DNA of 51,492 nucleotides from Candidatus Saccharimonadota bacterium (lineage in GTDB: Bacteria > Patescibacteriota > Saccharimonadia > Saccharimonadales > Saccharimonadaceae): contig RZYF01000001.1 of the NCBI GenBank assembly GCA_010014665.1, forward strand, positions 1-51,492. The letters are read 5' to 3'. The first letter of the stretch is position 1, and every line of letters starts with the position of its first letter. A program made the translations under genes and the position numbers. Below are positions 2,037 through 47,117 of the stretch, piece by piece. The notes below the pieces were generated by a model. The model had not been told where the DNA came from and did not search any database. It was given only the letters and a program-made list of their open reading frames with translations.

Positions 2037-3109
2037 TATTCACCCTCTTTTCTGTTTGTTGTTATCGTTCAACATGCAATCTTGAGGCGTTGCGTTGCCC
2101 GCGGAAACTTCCCCGCTGATGATTAAAGTAGACCAAAAACAGCATGCATTGACAATAACAAAATTACAAATAACACAATTTAATTTAATGCATCCCAATT
2201 TACCACAATGGTGAGATAGGCATGCAGAATTAGCATTGCCTAACTTTCCCCAGTACCCACGCAACACCAATGTTTCCAGCACCATGCAGGCAATGACAAC
2301 CATCATCCATTGTCAACCTTAGCAACTTCCAGGGTTTACATTAGTCATTACCCTGTTCAACCAGCTTGATCATGTCACCAGTTGCCTTGCGTCTTGTTTG
2401 TTGCTACTACTTGTCACTGACTGCATTGCGCTTGCTATAGTGCAACACCAGTCTGCTATGCCAACCAAGCTGGAAAGAATAAGCATTCTTTTTTGCTGGA
2501 GAATCAAACGGCAACAGGAGAGACCGCGGTGGCCAAGCGCGACGGGCGGGGGGAGAAATGAATACTCGGCATACACATTTAGGTTTTCCCACTTTTGGCC
2601 ATGTTCTATATCGTGGGTAGTGATTCTCTAACTGAACGTGTAATTATGTTATTTTATATCAGGGCATAATAAGTCCCCCCTATGCAGGAGGGACAACTAT
2701 GAGGTAGTGGTGGAGTAGTAAAGGTGGGTATAGTTTGACGCCTTATTCATTATGGAGCAGGTCATTCTGTCTCTCCATCGGGCGTGTCCATATGACGGGG
2801 GTGTATGCGGTCTTAAGGTTAGCATACAAAGATATGTGTGTGACACATTCTTTCACGATCAGTGTTTTTTCAAGATGTCCTTAGGTGCTTTTTCTCGCTG
2901 TTGCCTCTTCTCTTTTTCAAGGCTCCGTCCCAAGGGCTACATCATCGACCAAGTAATGAAACTTGTTTGTTCGGCTATTAACCACCGAACGCCTGATAGA
3001 ACATCGTGTATGTGAAGTTCCCGATCAGATTATGGATTCCCTTAATCTGTGTGAGATATAGTATGATTGAGGTTAATTTGTCAATGGTAAAGTTAATGTG
3101 ATATACATT
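2037..3109 (-). other. ORF-free, GC-enriched region; candidate structured RNA or long leader (strand inferred from flanking genes)
   Basis: No credible ORF on either strand; the track ORFs here are short, Cys-rich nonsense. Hand G+C counts are 36/60 at 2521-2580 and 27/60 at 2281-2340, against 16/60 in the adjacent coding line 1681-1740. Several hairpins are present. Confidence 0.3.
3055..3084 (-). promoter_or_regulatory. sigma70-like promoter candidate pointing into the ORF-free region
   Basis: Minus strand reads TTGACA (3084..3079), then 15 nt, then TACTAT (3063..3058). An alternative -10 is TATATC with an 18-nt spacer. Confidence 0.3.
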
Positions 3110-3286
3110 TTATTCGTAATTCTTAATCCATTCCAAGTCTCGTCGTAGATTGTCAGCCACGACAGTCATTTGTCTTAGCAGTTGATTGTCTATTATAGAC
3201 GATGATAGCAGTGCTATGTGTCGTCGTTCAAGATCTTTGAACTTAGTTCTTAGCTGTTCAAGTTCATTCAACTCTCGCTTGTTCAT
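3110..3286 (-). CDS. small coiled-coil protein (58 aa; below the ORF-track cutoff)
   Basis: ATG at 3286 overlaps the TGA of ORF 3283..3750 (ATGA). My translation is MNKRELNELEQLRTKFKDLERRH...WIKNYE. Confidence 0.5.
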   Translation of the reverse strand: MNKRELNELEQLRTKFKDLERRHIALLSSSIIDNQLLRQMTVVADNLRRDLEWIKNYE

Positions 3287-4117: not shown

Positions 4118-5857
4118 ATGAAAGCATATGGTATTAACTGGCCTGATTCATTGTCCGAATTGGATATTGAGAAGTATTGTTATCGTCATCAAGACAAGAT
4201 AAAGGCAAATGGTGGCATTGTTAAAGGCCAGTATTACCATGCTGAAAAAGGGATGAAGATGATGTGGCCTCCAGACTTGCTTGATTGGCATTACTGGTGC
4301 TATGAGATGTTGGACTTGTGGGTTAAAAATAGGTTCATGATCGTGTGGGGCGCGGCGGCTACTGGTAAATCCAACTTCTTCGGAGCGTTGTGTAGTTGGC
4401 ACTATATGTGTGCGCCAAACAAAACTGGTATCTTTCTCACATCAACATCACTGGAATCATTACAAAACCGTATTTGGGAGTCTGTCGAGCGTTACATGAA
4501 CTATGCCATTAACAAGCATAAGGCTCCATTCGCAATGACACATCGACCATTGTTGGTAATGAACAAAGCAGATTTCAGAGGGGATGAAATTGATTACAAG
4601 AATACTAAAACTACTATTCATGGAATGGGTGTTTGTGGTGGCAATAGTAAACTTATTGGTGGTCATCTACCTTATATTGTCGTAGTGATGGATGAAATGC
4701 AGGAAACACCGCCAAGCGTGCTCTCCGATGCTCATAACTTATCCAAGGGTTGCCAAGAGTTCAAATTCTGCGGAATAGGGAATCCGCCAAACTGGTCAAA
4801 CATTCTAGTCACCAATGGCCTACCAGAGAGCGGGAAAGAAGTTCTAACACCCGATACTCATCGATGGAGAAATAAAAAAGGTGAAACAATCCATTTGAAT
4901 GGAATGAAATCACCAGCAATCATCGAGGACAATGGTGCCAAACGTTATCATTACCTTATCAAGCAGTCAGAAATAGAAAACGATTATCCTACAGCAGAAG
5001 ATAGACGCACGCTGGAATACTATCAGTATGTTCTTGGATGGCCTGCTCCGAGTGATATATCAAATACCATCTTGGATATGCCAACGATAATGATGCATAA
5101 TGCCAACCATCCAGCAGAATTTGAAGGACAAGTAGTTAAAGTGGCAGGACTCGACCCAGCATTCACATCTGGCGGTGATGCTTGCGCTTTATCAATTTGT
5201 TCCATTGGCAAACTTGCTAGTGGCAATGTGGCAATAGCTTTGGACGAAATGATTCGTGTTCCAATCGTGCTGGATAGTGATGATCCTGTTATATACCACA
5301 TCGTCAAGAAGGTTAAACTAGCATTAGATGCACATGGTGTTGAACTGGAAGATCTTGCAATAGATGATAGTGGCACTCAAAGTGTTGCCGATGTATTTGA
5401 TCGTGAGTATGGAGTAAAAACTCATCGTGTGAATTTTGGTGGTGCGGCAACAAATCGTTTGATAAGTGCTGATAAATCTGTAAAAGCTTCCGATCGTTAT
5501 AACAGCAAGGTGACAGAGTTGTGGTATGTCGTGCGTGATCTTGTTAAAAGCGGAAACGTGCGTGGATTACGCGGAGCATGTTGCGAACAATTCTGTATTC
5601 GAGAAGTAAAGAATACAGGACGAAAGAAACAGGTCGAATCTAAAGGTGATATGAAGTCCAGAACCAGCGGCAAATCTCCTGATGAAGCTGACAGTTTCGT
5701 ATGTGCTGTAGATTTGGCTAGAAGTAGGTATGGACTGATGCCATTTGGTAGTTCTGTAAACATTTTGAAGAATCTGTTTGACAATAAATCGTTTTCGCCT
5801 GTAAAACAATTATACAACTTGGCTAATAAGTATACAAGCGGAAGGATTATGCGGTGA
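4118..5857 (+). CDS. terL: terminase large subunit
   Basis: Walker A VWGAAATGKSN, Walker B-like YIVVVMDEMQE, and a C-terminal nuclease-like AGLDPAFTSGGDACAL. 579 aa, followed by a portal-sized gene. Confidence 0.9.
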   Translation: MKAYGINWPDSLSELDIEKYCYRHQDKIKANGGIVKGQYYHAEKGMKMMWPPDLLDWHYWCYEMLDLWVKNRFMIVWGAAATGKSNFFGALCSWHYMCAPNKTGIFLTSTSLESLQNRIWESVERYMNYAINKHKAPFAMTHRPLLVMNKADFRGDEIDYKNTKTTIHGMGVCGGNSKLIGGHLPYIVVVMDEMQETPPSVLSDAHNLSKGCQEFKFCGIGNPPNWSNILVTNGLPESGKEVLTPDTHRWRNKKGETIHLNGMKSPAIIEDNGAKRYHYLIKQSEIENDYPTAEDRRTLEYYQYVLGWPAPSDISNTILDMPTIMMHNANHPAEFEGQVVKVAGLDPAFTSGGDACALSICSIGKLASGNVAIALDEMIRVPIVLDSDDPVIYHIVKKVKLALDAHGVELEDLAIDDSGTQSVADVFDREYGVKTHRVNFGGAATNRLISADKSVKASDRYNSKVTELWYVVRDLVKSGNVRGLRGACCEQFCIREVKNTGRKKQVESKGDMKSRTSGKSPDEADSFVCAVDLARSRYGLMPFGSSVNILKNLFDNKSFSPVKQLYNLANKYTSGRIMR

Positions 5858-29090: not shown

Positions 29091-32000
29091 ATGGCTGAAT
29101 ACGAACCTATTGATGTAGACGCTTTACAACATCTTTCAGACCTCACCTCTGGATCATTCATTGGAACAGATGGTTATATGTCGGAAGCAGGTGCTGATTT
29201 TTATGCATCCGAAGCCGCTAAGAGATACGGATATGTTGATCCAGACCCAAAAGGAATGGGTGAATCTTTAATTGCTGGTGTTAAAAGTGGGTTTATGACA
29301 GCGGCTGCTGGTACATTCAACACGCTGGGAGCATATGATCTTGAAGCACTTGCTAATCTAACAATAGAAACAAACCAGCAGTTGCAACCGTCAGACCGAG
29401 ACAGCATGGCGTCCACTATTATGAACATTGGTGGTCAGGCTATTGGACAGAACGTGCTAAATTTTGCTACAGCCGCAGGACTAACTCTTGCTGGACAACC
29501 ACATCTTGCTGGAATGGCGATGATGGGTGGAATGTATGTTCAGGAGTATGGGCGAAAACTTGATTTAGTTCAGCAGTATGCTCCAGACATGAGCTATGAC
29601 AATCAACGTCTTGTAGCATCAACAATGGCGGCTGGAACTGCTGTACTTGAAACAAGCATTGGTGCAGATAGATTAGTATTACAAGCTCTTGGTGCAAAGA
29701 ATGGTATAGGAGCATTGCCAACTATTATTTCTAGTTTTTCAAAAAAACTTGGAATGGCAACAGAAACAGCATCTATAGGATTGCGAAAGTCTGTAGTTAG
29801 AACAATGATTGCTACTGGAATTGAAGAAGGAGTAGAAGAAGGTGCTCAGAAAGGATTGGATGATTATATTCTTTCTGTAGTTGCAAATAAAAAGCCTGAC
29901 GAAGTTTCACAGTATCTAACAGAGATGGTGCATGGATTTATTGGTGGTATGTTCCTTGGATTTTTACCATCAGTTGCGATTGCACACCAAAACAGAACTA
30001 TTGAAAAGACGCTCACGCAAGACAATATTCAAGCTGGTATTGCAGATAAGTTGTCGGAAAAGATTGGTATAGAACAGTTTGAAGCAGAACGCCAAGCATT
30101 TATTAGCGAAGATGGACTTGCTGGAAATCTCACACGTTCAGGATTCGATGCCAACGTAGCACAAGCTGTTGCATACACGATGTTCGACAAAGCAATTGGT
30201 CTCAGTTCGTTGTCCAATTTCAAACAGAATCCTTCCGCATTCATTGAAGGAATGGGAATGGTCGGTGTTGAACAAGACATTCAACGCATGAAGACTGAGA
30301 ACCCAGAGCAATACAAACTGTTAAATGCCGAACTGACTAAAGCTACAGAAGCAGGAAGCACAACATCTGTATATTCCATACTGGATAAATACTTCAATAT
30401 AACTGCAAAGGTGCAAGGTCGAAATGCCGAGGCACAGGCACAGAAGAATGCTTCCAGAACGTCGAATGAAGTTACGTTGAATGATGATCAAGGCAATGTT
30501 AAAAGCATCAAGAAAGACACTGTGAATATTGATGGAAGAATTGCCACAAAAGATGTAGCAGAAGTAATGCAACAAGAACGTCTTGCTCTCCCAGAAGCTA
30601 CACAGCAACCACTACTTTTGAAGCCAGCAACAGAAAGTATTCGTATACAGAATGTTAACAATGTTGCAAACAAATTGCGTACAGGACAGCAGTTAAACGA
30701 TGAAGATGTAAATATTTACGCACAGAATGTACAAGAAATAGAAGCACAGTTGGTCGATACAAAAGCTGGTGCCGATGTTACTCGTTCTGCTGAATTGAGC
30801 AAGTTTAGAAAAGTTATCAATCTGAAAGTAAATAACATTTCCAAAACTGGATTCGATGCTGTTAACCGTCTTGATAATCTAACAGAAAACATGATTGTTG
30901 GAGAAGAAGGTCGTGCTCAGATATTGGACATGATTCAAAATCAAGATATAGCTGGTGCTGAAAGTGCTATGGATTCCATTGAATCTAATGCAGACATGTT
31001 GGACTACGAGCGTAAATCATCGTTAAAGCGTATTAAAGGGCTATTACGCGATGGCAACATCACCGACGAACAAGCACTTGCAATGGGCGAAAGAGTTGCT
31101 GGGACTACGCTTGAAACACTTGGAGACATGCAACAGTACATTGCTGACATAGAAGAATCAATATTCCTGCAAGAAGTACAAGATGAGCGCGCACAAATAG
31201 ACAAAGCGCAACTTCGAGAAACAAAACAACAGTCATATGCAAGAGTTCGTTCGCTGGAAAGTGCAGGAGCAATAGATGCAAAAACTGCAAATTCATTATA
31301 CGAAAACATTGTTGGATCAAATGCTGAACAGTTAAACGGCGAAATAGAGAAGCAAATTTCCAAGCTTGAATCAAAAACAGAGAAACAAACTGGAAAGCAG
31401 ACAAAGAAAAAGTTTGAGCAGAAATACAAAGGTGTAGATACAAAAGTAGAACAGGTTGAAACATCAATAGAGATCGATGCTGAAACTCTCGAAGACTATA
31501 TTGCTCAACGAATGCAGAAGGTTGAAGACACAGGAACAACAGAACTGAGTGGTGTAGATCAGACAAGTGCCAAGATAAAGACATCATTGATGAGCTTGAG
31601 CTCAGAAGAACTGGAACAGGCTGAAGTCAATGGATTCGATATGGATGGAGTTCATTACGAGATTGACGATGGCGTTGTTCATGCAACAGTTAAGCTTGTT
31701 GAAATAACGCCAATGGAAGAATCTCAACTCAATGCATACCAGCGTGTGTTGGCTTCTACACGTCAGGAATTGGTCGATACACACAAGGCGCAGAAAGCAG
31801 AAGACAACGCTAATGAACGTTTCATGGCTACTGAGCAGGCAATTCCGAACGCACTTGATGGTGTATGGGGAATGTATAATCCTGCTAATCGTACTGCTGT
31901 TTACTTTTCCACAGCAAAACCAGATGTAATCATCCACGAATGGATGCACCATGTTGTAGCAATGAATCTGTTGCCAACACAAATGGATTTAGCACTACGT

Positions 32001-35000
32001 AAAAGCTTCGGAGTGTCACCAGAAGGTAAATGGACTAACGATGCCGAGGAACGCCTTGTAGCCACGTTTATGCAGTATCTAGCCACACAGCAGATCAACA
32101 TGAATGGAATGGATGCCAATGTTAAACAGGCATTCGATATGTTGCGTGATAGCATGTCAACATCATGGGCTGATGCAGAGGTGTATACCAAAGGAATGGA
32201 TTACCAAGCAACATTGGATCAGACAGTTGATATTGATGGCAAACAGTACACAATGAAAGACCTGCTTGGTTCCATTGCAAATCCTTCACTGGATAATCGC
32301 CTGATTGCAGACATATTGGGAACTGTGCAAGACATTAAAAGCCGTGAACAAAGCAATAAAGCACGAGCACAAGCTGTTAATGAAGCAAAGAATCTTGACG
32401 ATGTGGACATGAGCGAAGATGAACGGATGATGCGCACATCCGAAATAGACACCATCATTTCCAATGCCAAAGCTCGTGGCACATACATGCTTGCTCCTAA
32501 TGGCAACCAGTCTAACCTAAACGAACGTCAGTGGGCACAAGTACGTACACAAGCATTCAAGAATTGGTTTGGTGACTGGGAGAATACACAGAATGCCAGC
32601 AAGGTTGTAGATGAGAACGGCGAACCGATGGTGGTTTATCATGGGACTGGTGTATCATTTGATGCATTTGATATTGAAAAAATAAATCGTCCTGGGGCTG
32701 GGTATGGCTTTCATTTCTCTACTGGCCCAAAGCTTGCTGGACTATATGCAGATCAGTGGAACTCTATTAGTAAGCATGGTTCTCCGCAAATTTATCCTGT
32801 TTATTTAAACATTTTAAATCCATCACCGTATTCAGTCTGGAAAAAGTTGATTGCTAAAAACTCGATGACTTTCGAGGGAGAAAAGAAATTTCGTGACGAA
32901 ATGATTGAGCTTGGATATGATGGATCGGTTTATGAGCACGGTAGATGGTGGGACGAAAACGCTCAGGATGATGAAAGCACTATTACTTATGTAGCTTTCT
33001 CGCAAAACCAGATAAAATCTGCAACAGGAAACGTAGGAACATTCTCTGCTGAAAACGATGACATCCGTTTCATGTCTACCAAGAAAGAAGATATTAAACG
33101 TATGGCATGGAGTACACATCAGCAAAACGTATCATCTGCTTCTACGTCAATTTCATACGTTGACCCTCAATCAAAGGCTCCGATAATATTTAGTGCATTC
33201 AGAGATGGAAAGATTCGTCTTGGAGAAAAGAATGCTGATATAGGTGGTGGAAGATTTGACCAGATAACCGATTGGTTAAAGACAAAAGGTGTCAATAATA
33301 TCGTTTGGGACAGATTCAATCGTGATGAAAAGCACAATGCTAACGCACAGAAAATGCTCCAAGATGGACAGGCTGATACAGCAACCTTAAGCAATGTACT
33401 CAATGTTATTCCAGAAAAAGAATCAAGACTTTCAGCTATTGCTACAGCATATGATTCACTTAAAAATGGTGGATCGCTTTATGTTTCTGCATACAAAGCA
33501 CCGAAGTCTGGAGAAGTTAGTGGTCGTGATGCATATCAAGTTGCTGAAAATCTAAACTTTTACAAGTCTGAAATTGAAGAAATATTTGGACAAGGAAACG
33601 TTGAGCGGGTCAAAGGAACGCAGATTCTCAAAGCAACAAAAGATGAACAATCAGAACGCTTCATGTCTACTAAGAAGAAAGCCAAAGCAGAACCTACACA
33701 AGCAGAACTTGAACACGAAGCGCAGAAACAGGCTGACAAAGCATTTGTTGACAGCATGAAAGACCAGATGAAGGCTCAGGTTCGTGGCACTCGTAAAGCA
33801 CGTAGCGAGCGTTTCCGAGGCAAAGATGAAAGCAAGGTTGCATTTGCGGCTAGAAAGTTACGCGACAAACTCAGTTCAATCCAAGCCGAAGTTTCAACTG
33901 ACTGGTCGATGTTCAGCATATTCGATGGTGACGATGCTGGCGGATACTTCTCAAATCAGTTCACTAAATTCCGTGACGCATACCATACGCATTTCATCCG
34001 ACTTGTTGAACAGTTCAATAAGCTGAACAACAAGTGGATCAAAGAGTTGGGCATCGATGAACGGTTGTGGAATAGCGGAAAGGATAGTTTGTTGATTGGT
34101 GACAAGTGGTTAAACATGGGTCATGCTGTATTTGCATATCGTTCACATCTTAATCGACAAGAGTTGCAACGCAGATCAAGAGTACTTGCTCGTGAAGAGA
34201 TTGCAGACAGAGTTGAACGTACAAAGGCAAAACTTGAAACAGCTAAGCAAAAAGGTGGAGCTGTAGAGTATTGGCAGAACGCATTAGATCGTTTCCAGTC
34301 GCAGGAATACTTGGAAAAGATAACTGCTAAACAAATGAAGCAGTTTGAGTCATGGGATCAGATGAAGAAGCTAATGTCATACAACGTCATGTCTGAGAAT
34401 CTTATCAATGAAGTCGTTAAGTATGTAGAAACGTCTGGTACATACGAAGCAGACCAGATCAAGAAGATGAACGAGCTGATGTCTCGTGGCTATACTGATG
34501 CTTGGGTTAAACAGAACGAAGAGTACAGAGTCCGCACTGGTCAAGACTTGTCAAAGATTCCATTCTATGTTCCAATTGCATACGATGGAATTATGATGCA
34601 GTCGGAGAATGATGCATTATCAGCAGAGCTTGGATACTTAACTCCTGAAGACATCGTTGCTTCGCGCGACAAAGGTATCAGAGGTAAAGATAAGCAGATC
34701 AAGAAACGTTCTGCTGGTGAAATTGGACGTGTACTCATTCTTAATCCACTTTCAACGATGAACAATTACCAACAACAGGCGGCGTCTTATATTGCTAGGT
34801 CACACAAAGCACAACTTGCATTGGAAGCTATTAATGATAAAGACGTAACAAGTGCAATGTACGACCGTTTTGGTGATGACAAATGGCATAGTAGATTCCA
34901 GTCGATGATTCGTCGTGATATGTACCATGACGGACGTTCAAGAAGCGCAGTAGGTGTTGAGCGAGTTGTAGACACCATGAGGAGTTGGACAATGCCTCCG

Positions 35001-36170
35001 TTGATTATGATGCGCGGAACTACGTCTGCAATTCAGGGACTATCAGGATTTGCTGGAGTTGCATACATGGGCGAAGCTGGACAACGAATCACCATGAATG
35101 ACATCCTTACAACTCCACATAAAGTTATGATGATGTCTGCCAACTTTGCAAAAATGTTGAGCTATATGAGTCGTGGAATTGCTACCAAAGGATTCGTGCA
35201 AGCTCGTGATTTCATGGAAGATTATGACGCAGAGTTGGTGTCGATCATCGACGAATACTTTCCTCGTCTATGGCATCGGTTTGGCATTGTAGAAACTGAC
35301 ATGATTAACAGTCCTCAGTTCAAAGCTGTACTTGCCAAACGTGTAAACATCAAAGGTAAGGATGTTCAGCTCGGCGAGATTGCAGGTGCTAGTTTGCGAG
35401 CAATCGATATGGCTACATGTTTGGCCGTGTTCAAGACTGCATTTGATTTCCAAATGACTGTAAATCAGACAAAAGAAATGACGCAGGAGCAATGCGAAGA
35501 AGATGCGGCTGGATTTGCACGTAGAGCTGTTAATGCTTCACAGCCAGCAGGTGATGTGTACAGCAAGAGCATAGCGCAAACTGAAACTGCAATGGGTAGA
35601 CTACTGTTTACATTCAATAACTATCCTGTAACGTTGTGGAATCAGACGGTTAACACATTGTTCAGACCATTGCTTCATGGTGCAACAGATGCGTGGCAAC
35701 AAAAAGATCCAATGAAATTTGTTGATGCACTAATGACAAGAACTCAACAAGGTGTGTCCATTCCAGACTTCGTCGTATTTGGGCTTGTAATGCCTGCTAT
35801 AGCCATCGGAATGATTAGACGTGGCATGAAGCCTCCAGAAGACAAAGAGCAACTGTGGCGTGATATATTCGCGTATCAGTTCAGTATGATACCTGTTGCT
35901 GGATCATTCCTGTCGTCTGCAATTGCAAGTGGTCGCACATACGGTACTGAATTTAGTACATTCAGGACTATTAGTGATATGTCGAAGTTACTGTCAGGAA
36001 ATACAGAACAGAAATTCAAAGCTGGATTGAGTATGGCATCTGTAGGAACACAGGTACCAATGGCTGTTATGCAAGACTTCTGGAACTTTGTAGGTAAAAT
36101 GACAAGAGATGAACAGATTACGTTCCTTGGGTTCCCTATTGAAGAAGCGATTATGGGTGAAAAGAAGTAA
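29091..36170 (+). CDS. giant polyvalent virion/ejection protein (2359 aa): hydrophobic N- and C-terminal segments, HExxH metallopeptidase-like site, ART-like domain, SAM-methyltransferase-like domain
   Basis: IIHEWMHH (nt 31935-31949 for HEWMH). FKNWFGDW..SKVVDENGEPMVVYHGT..GYGFHFS..QIKSATGN..IRF (about nt 32556-33075). ADIGGGRFD..DTATLSNVLNVI..LKNGGSLYVSAY (about nt 33234-33494). Confidence 0.7.
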   Translation: MAEYEPIDVDALQHLSDLTSGSFIGTDGYMSEAGADFYASEAAKRYGYVDPDPKGMGESLIAGVKSGFMTAAAGTFNTLGAYDLEALANLTIETNQQLQPSDRDSMASTIMNIGGQAIGQNVLNFATAAGLTLAGQPHLAGMAMMGGMYVQEYGRKLDLVQQYAPDMSYDNQRLVASTMAAGTAVLETSIGADRLVLQALGAKNGIGALPTIISSFSKKLGMATETASIGLRKSVVRTMIATGIEEGVEEGAQKGLDDYILSVVANKKPDEVSQYLTEMVHGFIGGMFLGFLPSVAIAHQNRTIEKTLTQDNIQAGIADKLSEKIGIEQFEAERQAFISEDGLAGNLTRSGFDANVAQAVAYTMFDKAIGLSSLSNFKQNPSAFIEGMGMVGVEQDIQRMKTENPEQYKLLNAELTKATEAGSTTSVYSILDKYFNITAKVQGRNAEAQAQKNASRTSNEVTLNDDQGNVKSIKKDTVNIDGRIATKDVAEVMQQERLALPEATQQPLLLKPATESIRIQNVNNVANKLRTGQQLNDEDVNIYAQNVQEIEAQLVDTKAGADVTRSAELSKFRKVINLKVNNISKTGFDAVNRLDNLTENMIVGEEGRAQILDMIQNQDIAGAESAMDSIESNADMLDYERKSSLKRIKGLLRDGNITDEQALAMGERVAGTTLETLGDMQQYIADIEESIFLQEVQDERAQIDKAQLRETKQQSYARVRSLESAGAIDAKTANSLYENIVGSNAEQLNGEIEKQISKLESKTEKQTGKQTKKKFEQKYKGVDTKVEQVETSIEIDAETLEDYIAQRMQKVEDTGTTELSGVDQTSAKIKTSLMSLSSEELEQAEVNGFDMDGVHYEIDDGVVHATVKLVEITPMEESQLNAYQRVLASTRQELVDTHKAQKAEDNANERFMATEQAIPNALDGVWGMYNPANRTAVYFSTAKPDVIIHEWMHHVVAMNLLPTQMDLALRKSFGVSPEGKWTNDAEERLVATFMQYLATQQINMNGMDANVKQAFDMLRDSMSTSWADAEVYTKGMDYQATLDQTVDIDGKQYTMKDLLGSIANPSLDNRLIADILGTVQDIKSREQSNKARAQAVNEAKNLDDVDMSEDERMMRTSEIDTIISNAKARGTYMLAPNGNQSNLNERQWAQVRTQAFKNWFGDWENTQNASKVVDENGEPMVVYHGTGVSFDAFDIEKINRPGAGYGFHFSTGPKLAGLYADQWNSISKHGSPQIYPVYLNILNPSPYSVWKKLIAKNSMTFEGEKKFRDEMIELGYDGSVYEHGRWWDENAQDDESTITYVAFSQNQIKSATGNVGTFSAENDDIRFMSTKKEDIKRMAWSTHQQNVSSASTSISYVDPQSKAPIIFSAFRDGKIRLGEKNADIGGGRFDQITDWLKTKGVNNIVWDRFNRDEKHNANAQKMLQDGQADTATLSNVLNVIPEKESRLSAIATAYDSLKNGGSLYVSAYKAPKSGEVSGRDAYQVAENLNFYKSEIEEIFGQGNVERVKGTQILKATKDEQSERFMSTKKKAKAEPTQAELEHEAQKQADKAFVDSMKDQMKAQVRGTRKARSERFRGKDESKVAFAARKLRDKLSSIQAEVSTDWSMFSIFDGDDAGGYFSNQFTKFRDAYHTHFIRLVEQFNKLNNKWIKELGIDERLWNSGKDSLLIGDKWLNMGHAVFAYRSHLNRQELQRRSRVLAREEIADRVERTKAKLETAKQKGGAVEYWQNALDRFQSQEYLEKITAKQMKQFESWDQMKKLMSYNVMSENLINEVVKYVETSGTYEADQIKKMNELMSRGYTDAWVKQNEEYRVRTGQDLSKIPFYVPIAYDGIMMQSENDALSAELGYLTPEDIVASRDKGIRGKDKQIKKRSAGEIGRVLILNPLSTMNNYQQQAASYIARSHKAQLALEAINDKDVTSAMYDRFGDDKWHSRFQSMIRRDMYHDGRSRSAVGVERVVDTMRSWTMPPLIMMRGTTSAIQGLSGFAGVAYMGEAGQRITMNDILTTPHKVMMMSANFAKMLSYMSRGIATKGFVQARDFMEDYDAELVSIIDEYFPRLWHRFGIVETDMINSPQFKAVLAKRVNIKGKDVQLGEIAGASLRAIDMATCLAVFKTAFDFQMTVNQTKEMTQEQCEEDAAGFARRAVNASQPAGDVYSKSIAQTETAMGRLLFTFNNYPVTLWNQTVNTLFRPLLHGATDAWQQKDPMKFVDALMTRTQQGVSIPDFVVFGLVMPAIAIGMIRRGMKPPEDKEQLWRDIFAYQFSMIPVAGSFLSSAIASGRTYGTEFSTFRTISDMSKLLSGNTEQKFKAGLSMASVGTQVPMAVMQDFWNFVGKMTRDEQITFLGFPIEEAIMGEKK

Positions 36171-39026: not shown

Positions 39027-39410
39027 CTATACTGTTCTCATTCCACTTACAAATGCAAATCCTGTCGAATATTCTACAAGCAGGAATGATCCACCACCTT
39101 GGAGTATGATCTTGAACTTAACATCTGCATCATCTATGTGCGAAAATATAGCATGGATGAATCGTGTATTAAACTTTGCATTCAGTTCAAAATCACATTC
39201 AATTCCTGTCTTGAACTCAATATCGCCATGATCTGACGTTGAAACGATGGTTAAGTCTTTACCAAATATAAAGTTCATGCTGAAATCTGACTCGGTTGAA
39301 ATCAGCAACGCACTTTTAACACCATCCATTATGCGATTAGAAATTACATTCACTTCATGGTTAAATGTCTGATTAATTATTGGCTTAATGTTCGGATATG
39401 TTCCATTTTT
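39027..39410 (-). CDS. dnaN: C-terminal (domain III-like) part of the DnaN-like sliding clamp. Open frame directly after an in-frame TAA, with no ATG of its own.
   Basis: NAKFNTRFIHAIFSHIDDADVKF...FAFVSGMR parallels IGFNVSYVLDVLNAL...YVVMPMRL of E. coli DnaN. Same frame as 39411..40094. Confidence 0.6.
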   Translation of the reverse strand, partial: KNGTYPNIKPIINQTFNHEVNVISNRIMDGVKSALLISTESDFSMNFIFGKDLTIVSTSDHGDIEFKTGIECDFELNAKFNTRFIHAIFSHIDDADVKFKIILQGGGSFLLVEYSTGFAFVSGMRTV

Positions 39411-40094
39411 TTATGACATCATCACGCATAAATCATCGGTACGCACAACCATCTTTGTATCCGACAATGCAATAGTGCAATTACATTTTCCAGCAAGTGC
39501 TTTTGATAGTGACTCTGAATGCTTTGCAGAAATCATTGCACTTGTTTCACGTTTAGTATCACAAGTAATGTTTGATGTTGCCATTCTGTAACCATCTGTT
39601 CCTGTTATATGTACTCCATCATCAAAAATGAAGTGCAATGAATTCTTCACATCCTGTTCCATAGTGTGACACGCATAAACGGTGTTAGAAATCATCTTGG
39701 ACAGCTCGGTTGCAGAACATTCAGTAATGACTTCAGCGTTATCCATGACAACTTCTGGGTAGTCTTCAGCATTGATGATTGGCAACTTTATCTTTCGTCC
39801 ATCTGATTTAATAACAACAGTTGAATCAAGAACTTCAAGCTCTATCTCGCCAGCAGCACTTTTGACAACCTTGGAAAACATTGTGTGATCTACAGCAAAC
39901 TTATAGCAATCTGTTGATTGTACATCAACTGATTGAGATATTGCAATGGATAAGTCTGTTGCAGTAAGAGTCATGCATGTATTGCTAATGCTAACGTGAA
40001 CATTTTGCAGTGTAGTAATAGCTGGCCTTGAAGAAATAGCACAAGCAGTTGCCGATAATGCGTCTATCAATTCTGCTTTGTTTACAGTAATCAT
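39411..40094 (-). CDS. dnaN: N-terminal (domains I-II-like) part of the DnaN-like sliding clamp, ending at TAA 39413..39411
   Basis: ITVNKAELIDAL, TLTATDLSIAI, LPIINAEDYPEV, TGTDGYRMA are clamp-like segments. 227 aa. Confidence 0.7.
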   Translation of the reverse strand: MITVNKAELIDALSATACAISSRPAITTLQNVHVSISNTCMTLTATDLSIAISQSVDVQSTDCYKFAVDHTMFSKVVKSAAGEIELEVLDSTVVIKSDGRKIKLPIINAEDYPEVVMDNAEVITECSATELSKMISNTVYACHTMEQDVKNSLHFIFDDGVHITGTDGYRMATSNITCDTKRETSAMISAKHSESLSKALAGKCNCTIALSDTKMVVRTDDLCVMMS

Positions 40095-40163
40095 TTCGCA
40101 AGCCTTTCATACATTTCTTTTTCACGCTTAGTCCATTTTGATCTCGGAACTACCATATAATGG

Positions 40164-40619
40164 TCAAACTCGTCTCCATTTCTTATACCAATCACAGAAA
40201 ATGTGCATCCGTTTTTTCATGTCAAAAAACCTCCTTTGTGTAGCGCATTTGACTGATTCGTCCCAGCACTCAACAAGAACCTTGTCTTTAAGCTCCGTGT
40301 CTTCACCACGCTCTTCATCAGAATCATCTTTCCATTTAAGACCATCTTTAACAGTATAGATTAGATGCTTTGCGTGATCTTCTGCTATACAGTGATTGTC
40401 TACCACTCTTTCACGCTCATGCTTTACGCCATGAATCCATGCTGATTTGTATACAAACGAGAAGAACTCTTCAAGTGCTTCTAGGAAAAAATCGTAGTCG
40501 TCACGTGAGCCTGCGTCCACAATTTTGGATGTTACTCTAATTAAGTTTCTTGTATAATCGCAATGGCAGTCAATCATTTCCGCGTCAGCTTTGTTAATCT
40601 CTTCAATTCGTTCTTTCAT
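40164..40619 (-). CDS. hypothetical protein (151 aa)
   Basis: ORF in the operon. Confidence 0.5.
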   Translation of the reverse strand: MKERIEEINKADAEMIDCHCDYTRNLIRVTSKIVDAGSRDDYDFFLEALEEFFSFVYKSAWIHGVKHERERVVDNHCIAEDHAKHLIYTVKDGLKWKDDSDEERGEDTELKDKVLVECWDESVKCATQRRFFDMKKRMHIFCDWYKKWRRV

Positions 40620-40953
40620 TCTGTTCTTTCTCCATAATTAGGTTATCTAGTTCTGTTATACCGCACTTGTGTAGAAAGTGCAGTCTATTATGTCTATAAC
40701 CGCACAACATTATGTGTTCGCATATTGCACGCCCAGTTAAGTATCCAATTGTACATTCAACACTGAACGAGTCGTTATGGCATACGTTCTTTTTTCTTGG
40801 TGTTAGTGTATAGTAGTCAAGAGGAACTCCATTGACTATAATACCACTGCGCACAAACCTACGATAATCGTTGATTGCAGTTTCGATCATCCTACTGTAG
40901 AATTTGCGGACAATGCTTTCATCATCGCTTTTCATATTGCATCCTTTCTGCAA
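40603..40953 (-). CDS. hypothetical protein (116 aa)
   Basis: ORF in the operon. Confidence 0.5.
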   Translation of the reverse strand: MQKGCNMKSDDESIVRKFYSRMIETAINDYRRFVRSGIIVNGVPLDYYTLTPRKKNVCHNDSFSVECTIGYLTGRAICEHIMLCGYRHNRLHFLHKCGITELDNLIMEKEQNERTN

Positions 40954-47017: not shown

Positions 47018-47117
47018 AGCACCCGACAGGATTCGAACCTGCACCATGTCATGATCATGAACAGTTTCTTCATGCCTAAAGAATATTACTGTACGTTTAC
47101 CATTCCGCCACGGGTGA
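47018..47117 (-). tRNA. tRNA-like gene, type II (Leu-like D arm, long variable region) with an aberrant 30-nt anticodon arm. Isotype undetermined.
   Basis: Minus strand: TCACCCG TG GCGG-AATGGTAA-ACGT A [CAGTAATATTCTTTAGGCATGAAGAAACTG] TTCATGATCATGACATGGT GCAGG-TTCGAAT-CCTGT CGGGTGC T. The T-loop GGTTCGAATCC is canonical. The D arm is close to E. coli tRNA-Leu TGGCGGAATTGGTAGACGC. There is a 1:72 T:C mismatch and no encoded CCA. Confidence 0.55.

Follow-up and report, generated by a model that had tools for sequence, protein, structure and literature searches.

The stretch of DNA analysed here (51,492 nucleotides, called the window below) carries on its minus strand the early or replication module of a phage, with genes for an Erf-like annealing protein, an SSB, an exonuclease, a DnaD/O-like initiator, a DNA methyltransferase, a dUTPase, a DnaB-type helicase, a clamp and a glutaredoxin. 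According to the list of open reading frames and their translations, the frame of the clamp gene runs on this strand from 40094 to 39027, comprises 355 codons plus a terminal TAG, and is broken once, by an in-frame TAA that divides it into an upstream and a downstream piece (Table 1). The peptide before the stop ends in ...TDDLCVMMS at codon 227, and past the TAA the same frame reads KNGTYPNIKPIINQTFNHEV NVISNRIMDGV...FAFVSGMRTV, with 19 sense codons between the TAA and the GTG at 39353. An earlier note, made by reading the sequence by itself, had reported two pieces in one frame at these positions, separated by 19 codons and adding up to 355, and on re-reading all of this proved correct; its remark that the downstream piece has no ATG was mistaken, since an in-frame ATG is present at 39329. 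One gene caller begins a 100-aa downstream protein at this ATG and the NCBI annotation begins a 93-aa protein at the TTG at 39308, the three gene calls for domain III giving three different starts. An uninterrupted frame for all three clamp domains is absent in the window and present in its relatives.

Table 1. Elements of the interrupted clamp gene, candidate starts within it and the tRNA-like gene, in window coordinates
Feature	Position	Strand	Description or evidence
5' part of phage dnaN-like gene	39411..40094	-	227 aa covering clamp domains I and II, up to the premature TAA
Premature stop codon TAA	39411..39413	-	Alignment to seven related gene copies
In-frame 3' remnant, 127 sense codons and the original TAG (39029..39027)	39027..39410	-	Domain II-III linker and the whole of domain III
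Candidate domain III start GTG	39353	-	Duplex energy +0.4 kcal/mol
Candidate domain III start ATG	39329	-	Duplex energy +0.9 kcal/mol
Candidate domain III start TTG	39308	-	Duplex energy -6.8 kcal/mol; the only one with SD-like GGATGGTG upstream
tRNA-like gene	47018..47117	-	Rfam tRNA, 32.4 bits; gathering score 29

The gene encodes a phage homologue of DnaN, the beta sliding clamp of bacteria, with three domains and a length of about 355 aa. Its upstream piece is matched by the Pfam models DNA_pol3_beta (PF00712; 8e-17, 61.9 bits against a cut-off of 24.4) and DNA_pol3_beta_2 (PF02767; 8e-11, 42.6-46.8 bits against a cut-off of 27), and the match to the latter, which ends at profile position 104 of 116, extends to 116 of 116 once the stop is read through. 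Likewise, PHROG 947 (DNA polymerase processivity factor) aligns with the upstream piece over profile positions 4-230 (1e-26) and with the downstream piece, colinearly, over positions 237-351, the joined sequence giving 1e-34. The Pfam model of the C-terminal domain, PF02768, finds no match in the downstream 127 aa or in the joined protein, and it is equally absent from the precomputed Pfam lists of two intact relatives, P0001 and P0031. In this context the domain assignments of the earlier note stand: the Pfam and PHROG matches identify 39411..40094 as domains I and II, and both PHROG 947 and the structure model described below support its proposal that clamp homology continues past the stop, with 39027..39353 as domain III, even though the profile check which it had suggested for the joined translation brings no match to PF02768.

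The structure model was made with AlphaFold2 from the intact orthologue P0001, not from the truncated product of the window. In this model (pLDDT 91.8, pTM 0.88) a pattern of strands and helices is repeated three times, corresponding to the three clamp domains, and Leu228 ends the last strand of domain II, followed by a linker (residues 229-245) and domain III (246-350). A Foldseek comparison of the model with solved beta clamps gives full-length TM-scores of 0.86-0.92 and E values of about 1e-29, the matches including the clamps of B. subtilis, P. aeruginosa, C. difficile and E. coli (e.g. 4TR6 from B. subtilis and 1MMI from E. coli). The residue at the position of the stop is an invariant Leu in an alignment of 26 homologues, in keeping with the earlier note, which had placed the stop at a Leu in a conserved segment of E. 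coli DnaN, and in cellular clamps it lies within the segment S-K-L-I-D-G-x-(F/Y)-P-D-Y.

What the gene has in common with bacterial DnaN is thus the three-domain fold, the matches to the N-terminal and central Pfam models, and a segment S-x-L-I-D-G-x-Y-P-D-Y, which includes the mutated Leu and has here diverged to S-L-K-N-G-T-Y-P-N-I. It differs in being phage-encoded, in sharing about 17-27% identity, in leaving PF02768 unmatched and, for the copy in the window, in stopping after domain II. With the phage DnaN-like factors of PHROG 947 it shares the profile match of 1e-34 and the location in a replication module; examples are found in Rhizobium phages RHph_X2_25 and RR1-A, Aurantimonas phage AmM-1 and Microcystis phages Mae-JY04/JY28 ('DNA polymerase III beta subunit'). 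A tblastn search located the clamp gene in 15 phage records over 70-96% of the gene length, the best match being 20-26% identical, and in these records the matches run unbroken over most of the gene whereas the window copy has its premature stop. No close relative was found at the nucleotide level in the phage GenBank collection, and neither the viral contigs of IMG/VR nor the representative genomes of GTDB yielded a relative of the clamp. The gene is a new and distant member of a known group of phage DnaN-like clamps, represented here by a disrupted allele.

Closer relatives are found by a protein search. The intact P0001 (355 aa, from JGI 3300009779) is 91% identical over the full length, and the cluster of the window fragment itself (P0002, 227 aa) also contains the intact P0031 (356 aa) as well as both downstream-fragment calls. 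P0031 is encoded on contigs from ERZ27257486, ERZ795053, JGI 3300009778 and SRR5007144, and a fifth, partial copy (Ga0209607, the last 276 codons) is identical to these at the nucleotide level; the window allele, with TAA after codon 227, occurs in the window and in the runs SRR8327731 and SRR8327730. The three alleles have 93-96% nucleotide identity within the gene, and the 127-residue 3' remnant differs from P0031 at 3 residues and from P0001 at 8. At the site of interruption all relatives read TCA TTA AAA AAT and the window reads TCA TAA AAA AAT, such that TTA (Leu) is present in both related alleles (seven gene copies from six metagenome samples). Parsimony over the three alleles places the T-to-A change on the branch of the window, and the TAA is therefore a derived single-base change in the window lineage, TTA (Leu228) being the ancestral codon. 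The changed T formed the 5' edge of a run of six A residues, which is now a run of seven.

Aligning relatives at the site had been proposed in the earlier note, and the finding that they carry TTA in an uninterrupted gene supports one of the options it listed, that of a very recent nonsense mutation. The accompanying rule, by which a sense codon in relatives would point to a sequencing error, is too narrow, a genuine mutation fitting such a pattern equally well. A further difference between the alleles lies five codons before the stop, where a 3-nt indel in a GTGATGATG repeat at 39426..39434 (minus strand) distinguishes the window and P0001, both reading CVMMS, from P0031, which reads CVMMMS; it looks like a small tandem-repeat slippage near the nonsense site.

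One question then is whether the stop is real. The difference concerns a single base adjoining a homopolymer, and the sequence derives from a metagenome assembly and was compared at the level of contigs, all of which would be compatible with an artefact in which the actual phage has TTA and the A is an error of the deposited contig. The same 227-aa product is, however, encoded on two Logan contigs, from SRR8327731 (20 kb, of which 16.3 kb were compared) and SRR8327730 (1.7 kb); in the compared stretches of 16.3 kb and 1.7 kb they agree with the window at 100% identity. Both runs were generated in a study on six Argentinian stabilisation ponds for dairy wastewater, in which one composite sample per pond was sequenced on Illumina HiSeq (2x150), each pond system was co-assembled by the authors with IDBA_UD, and SRR8327730 and SRR8327731 were assigned to separate ponds (PMC8929167). 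The window, an NCBI record, probably stems from this project as well. The A is therefore common to the 51.5-kb record and to two separately made per-run assemblies, which makes an assembly or sequencing error unlikely. Moreover, a consensus substitution error repeated across two Illumina libraries is very unlikely in general. We accordingly regard an artefact, which the earlier note had counted among the options, as highly improbable. In the assembled contigs, TAA is the consensus allele in two connected ponds, where a minority of phages may still have TTA.

If the stop is genuine, the pattern of substitutions on either side of it bears on its age. Upstream of the stop the window branch has accumulated 12 synonymous and 12 non-synonymous codon changes; downstream there are 5 synonymous and 2 non-synonymous ones (E to D and D to N) and no indels. 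Pairwise dN/dS values range over 0.19-0.26 in the upstream part and 0.11-0.23 in the downstream part. Under neutrality about 79% of the downstream changes would be expected to be non-synonymous, and the probability of finding 2 or fewer among 7 is 0.006, a value which depends on small numbers (7 changes) and could be distorted by recombination among mosaic phages. Seven changes fit two readings alike: either the stop is young relative to the branch (dS below about 0.1), or domain III is still translated. We adopt the former, since tests for recoding and for a split gene, to which we now turn, gave no support to the latter.

Continued translation of domain III could, in principle, be achieved if the TAA were decoded at a useful rate, perhaps as Leu, by an ochre suppressor of the host or by the tRNA-like RNA encoded at 47018..47117, so that full-length clamp would still be made. 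The apparently purifying changes in domain III (5 synonymous, 2 non-synonymous) would agree with this. So would the base that follows the stop, an A, as this is a weaker termination context than UAAU, and so would the presence in the window of a Leu-type tRNA-like gene which scores above the Rfam gathering threshold (Table 1) and contains in its anticodon region the heptamer CUUUAGG, which would present UUA flanked by U33 and a purine at position 37. On the other hand, UAA is recognised by both release factors and leaks less than any other bacterial stop, all relatives have TTA, and TAA is an ordinary terminator in the window, where it ends 23 of the 55 long ORFs (TGA ends 27 and TAG 5), such that an efficient ochre suppressor would lengthen many phage proteins. 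Conservation of the stop among relatives, which is a mark of programmed readthrough, is not seen here, as both related alleles have TTA. Nor do the 96 nt around and after the stop fold better than shuffled sequences (z = 0.14), and an Rfam search of the window detected no recoding element.

A scan of the window for pairs of ORFs in the same frame with a single stop between them, which considered their positions and start codons, yielded no other pair suggestive of readthrough: the other same-frame neighbours checked restart at a start codon of their own within about 20 nt. With the standard code, ORFs as long as 2359 aa stay open. Several other forms of recoding were considered and rejected. 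A genome-wide reassignment of TAA is contradicted by the 23 of 55 long ORFs which end in this codon and by the lack of any other readthrough-like pair. Transcriptional slippage on the A7 run was rejected by reasoning, for UAA consists of the U and the first two As of the run, and a change in run length would keep the stop and shift only the frame that follows it. Ribosomal frameshifting was rejected as well, both pieces already being in one frame, while the sequence AUG UCA UAA before and at the stop offers the P-site tRNA no alternative pairing.

The tRNA-like gene itself is situated in a true gap between genes, and two Logan contigs from two per-run assemblies carry it in identical form. It has good acceptor, D and T arms and a long extra arm. 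Its D arm looks by eye like the one in tRNA-Leu of bacteria, and the topmost pair of the acceptor stem, U1-C72, is mismatched. The deviation concerns the anticodon arm, which is about 15 nt too long: in place of the 17-nt arm the Rfam tRNA model leaves 44 nt unaligned, and in the lowest-energy fold the UUUA is buried in a 12-bp arm with a 4-nt bulge and a GGCA tetraloop. At default settings ARAGORN calls no tRNA here; with introns allowed it proposes a Leu(AAG) tRNA with an odd 15-nt insert at a non-canonical position and a G at position 33. Enumeration of all 5+7+5 stem-loops within the 44-nt stretch returned a single one that presents UUA, the CUUUAGG loop, in whose stem only 3 of the 5 positions pair, and the gene has no 7-nt anticodon loop of canonical form. 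In its present state the tRNA-like gene cannot credibly be taken for an ochre suppressor. It could be a tRNA that has degenerated or that carries an unusual insert, or else a mimic of a tRNA. Exact-pattern scans of viral contigs for two of its segments, the second of which was also sought in genome contigs, gave no relatives, and a look-up of the two small proteins flanking it returned only contigs identical to the window.

Taken together, decoding of the TAA at a useful rate by either kind of suppressor appears to have only a slim chance of being correct, and the option of programmed readthrough or suppression raised in the earlier note finds no support in a window where TAA is a normal terminator, the stop is accompanied by no structure and the tRNA-like gene has no canonical anticodon loop. 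More specifically, the tRNA-like RNA (if its oversized anticodon arm were first processed or refolded in an unconventional way) or a host ochre suppressor might insert Leu and restore Leu228, the amount of clamp then depending on suppression; this we hold to be extremely improbable. Were it true, the suppressed stop would be a rare example of phage-controlled ochre suppression, but the evidence points against it.

Domain III might alternatively be produced separately, or dispensed with altogether, in a functional split or truncated clamp, in which the domain I-II fragment would either be active by itself, for instance by trimerising in the manner of PCNA or by inhibiting the host clamp, or cooperate with an independently translated domain III. 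In the structure model domain II ends exactly where the stop lies, so that the fragment could fold, and of the candidate starts the TTG at 39308 is preceded by the SD-like GGATGGTG and is the one used in the NCBI 93-aa call. There is also a precedent in E. coli, which makes beta*, a two-domain form of DnaN, from an internal start. The likeness is confined to the making of a two-domain product from a three-domain clamp gene, for beta* consists of domains II and III and keeps the partner-binding pocket whereas the fragment here consists of domains I and II and is without it, and beta* arises from an internal start whereas the present fragment arises from a premature stop.

SD sequences are common in the window, with a median duplex energy of -5.8 kcal/mol and with 72% of genes at or below -4, as against 13% of background start triplets, and judged against this median neither the GTG at 39353 nor the ATG at 39329 has an SD. 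The TTG at 39308 lies in a region coding for MDGVKSALL, the protein product of which is the same in the intact relatives, such that its SD-like sequence is no newly evolved signal; moreover, a product starting there would, in the structure model, miss the beginning of domain III, namely its first strand and most of its first helix. The disagreement of the three gene calls over the start also speaks against a defined second gene. In beta clamps the ring is closed by a dimer interface of which domain III provides one half, as it also does of the hydrophobic pocket that binds partner proteins, and the I-II fragment would lack both the domain III side of the ring interface and this half of the pocket. 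Relatives at 93-96% identity keep the fused three-domain gene. We therefore consider a functional split or truncated clamp very unlikely, and nothing indicates an evolved two-gene arrangement; the deliberately truncated clamp envisaged in the earlier note is likewise unsupported, the potential starts being situated in coding sequence that has the same product in intact relatives and each of them cutting into domain III.

We are thus left with a reading that we hold with considerable confidence, namely that the phage dnaN-like gene has undergone a recent and ordinary nonsense mutation from TTA (Leu228) to TAA. Ribosomes would stop at the TAA and release the 227-residue domain I-II fragment, which without domain III would form no working clamp ring, and the 127 downstream codons would be an untranslated remnant in which decay has not yet begun. 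The mutation itself could have arisen by transient misalignment of the template at the homopolymer during copying, with the T bordering the A6 run being replaced by A; a T-to-A change next to a run of A is the pattern expected of such misalignment.

How such a loss could be tolerated is suggested by the composition of the replication module. Among 20 ORFs scanned in and around it none matched a DNA polymerase family, which implies that the phage probably uses the replisome of its host. SPP1-type phages are described as recruiting host polymerase III, and by analogy the present phage probably does the same. A phage using the host replisome would need its own clamp only as an accessory, so that a knockout could persist, replication being carried out by the host replisome including the host clamp; on this argument the phage's own clamp is probably dispensable. 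Against a simple knockout counts the observation that the clamp is under purifying selection in the relatives (dN/dS about 0.2), and hence useful to them, whereas in two ponds the knockout has become the consensus.

A nonsense mutation of this kind resembles the ochre alleles and young pseudogenes of other accessory phage genes, in which one base change produces TAA, the downstream frame remains intact and relatives have a sense codon; the only distinction here is that the mutant is the consensus allele in two pond samples. Its significance beyond annotation is small. Annotations should treat the 227-aa ORF and the ORF downstream of it (93 or 100 aa) as parts of a single disrupted dnaN-like gene, a pseudogene or nonsense allele, and not as two proteins. 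The case also suggests that a phage relying on the replisome of its host can manage, for some time at least, without the beta clamp that it encodes.

The surroundings of the gene are variable. Directly upstream of the clamp start there is a 309-bp insertion (40098..40406), which is absent from all relatives, has no similarity in the phage collection and makes the upstream gene 151 codons long in place of 76. Inside it are a strong AAGGAGG and an ATG (40220) that opens an ORF of only 18 codons, and the ATG of the clamp is overlapped (ATGA) by a 34-codon ORF of the +1 frame (40195..40091); the insertion may represent a small gene with a frameshift. Conversely, the relatives have about 590 bp with two small genes (2548-3135 of the related locus L007) at window position 40630..40635, and in L007 an RNA-ligase gene (PF09414, 184 aa; 5169-5723) at a place corresponding to about 38300, neither being present in the window. 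Such differences in gene content are typical of the mosaicism between otherwise 92-97% identical phages. Within the plus-strand structural module, the G+C content rises to 0.49-0.52 between 18001 and 22000, as against about 0.40 elsewhere. The plus-strand block is closed, just before the strand switch, by the 2359-aa ORF (29091..36170, plus strand), which has a precomputed Pfam match to ART-PolyVal, the ADP-ribosyltransferase domain of polyvalent proteins.
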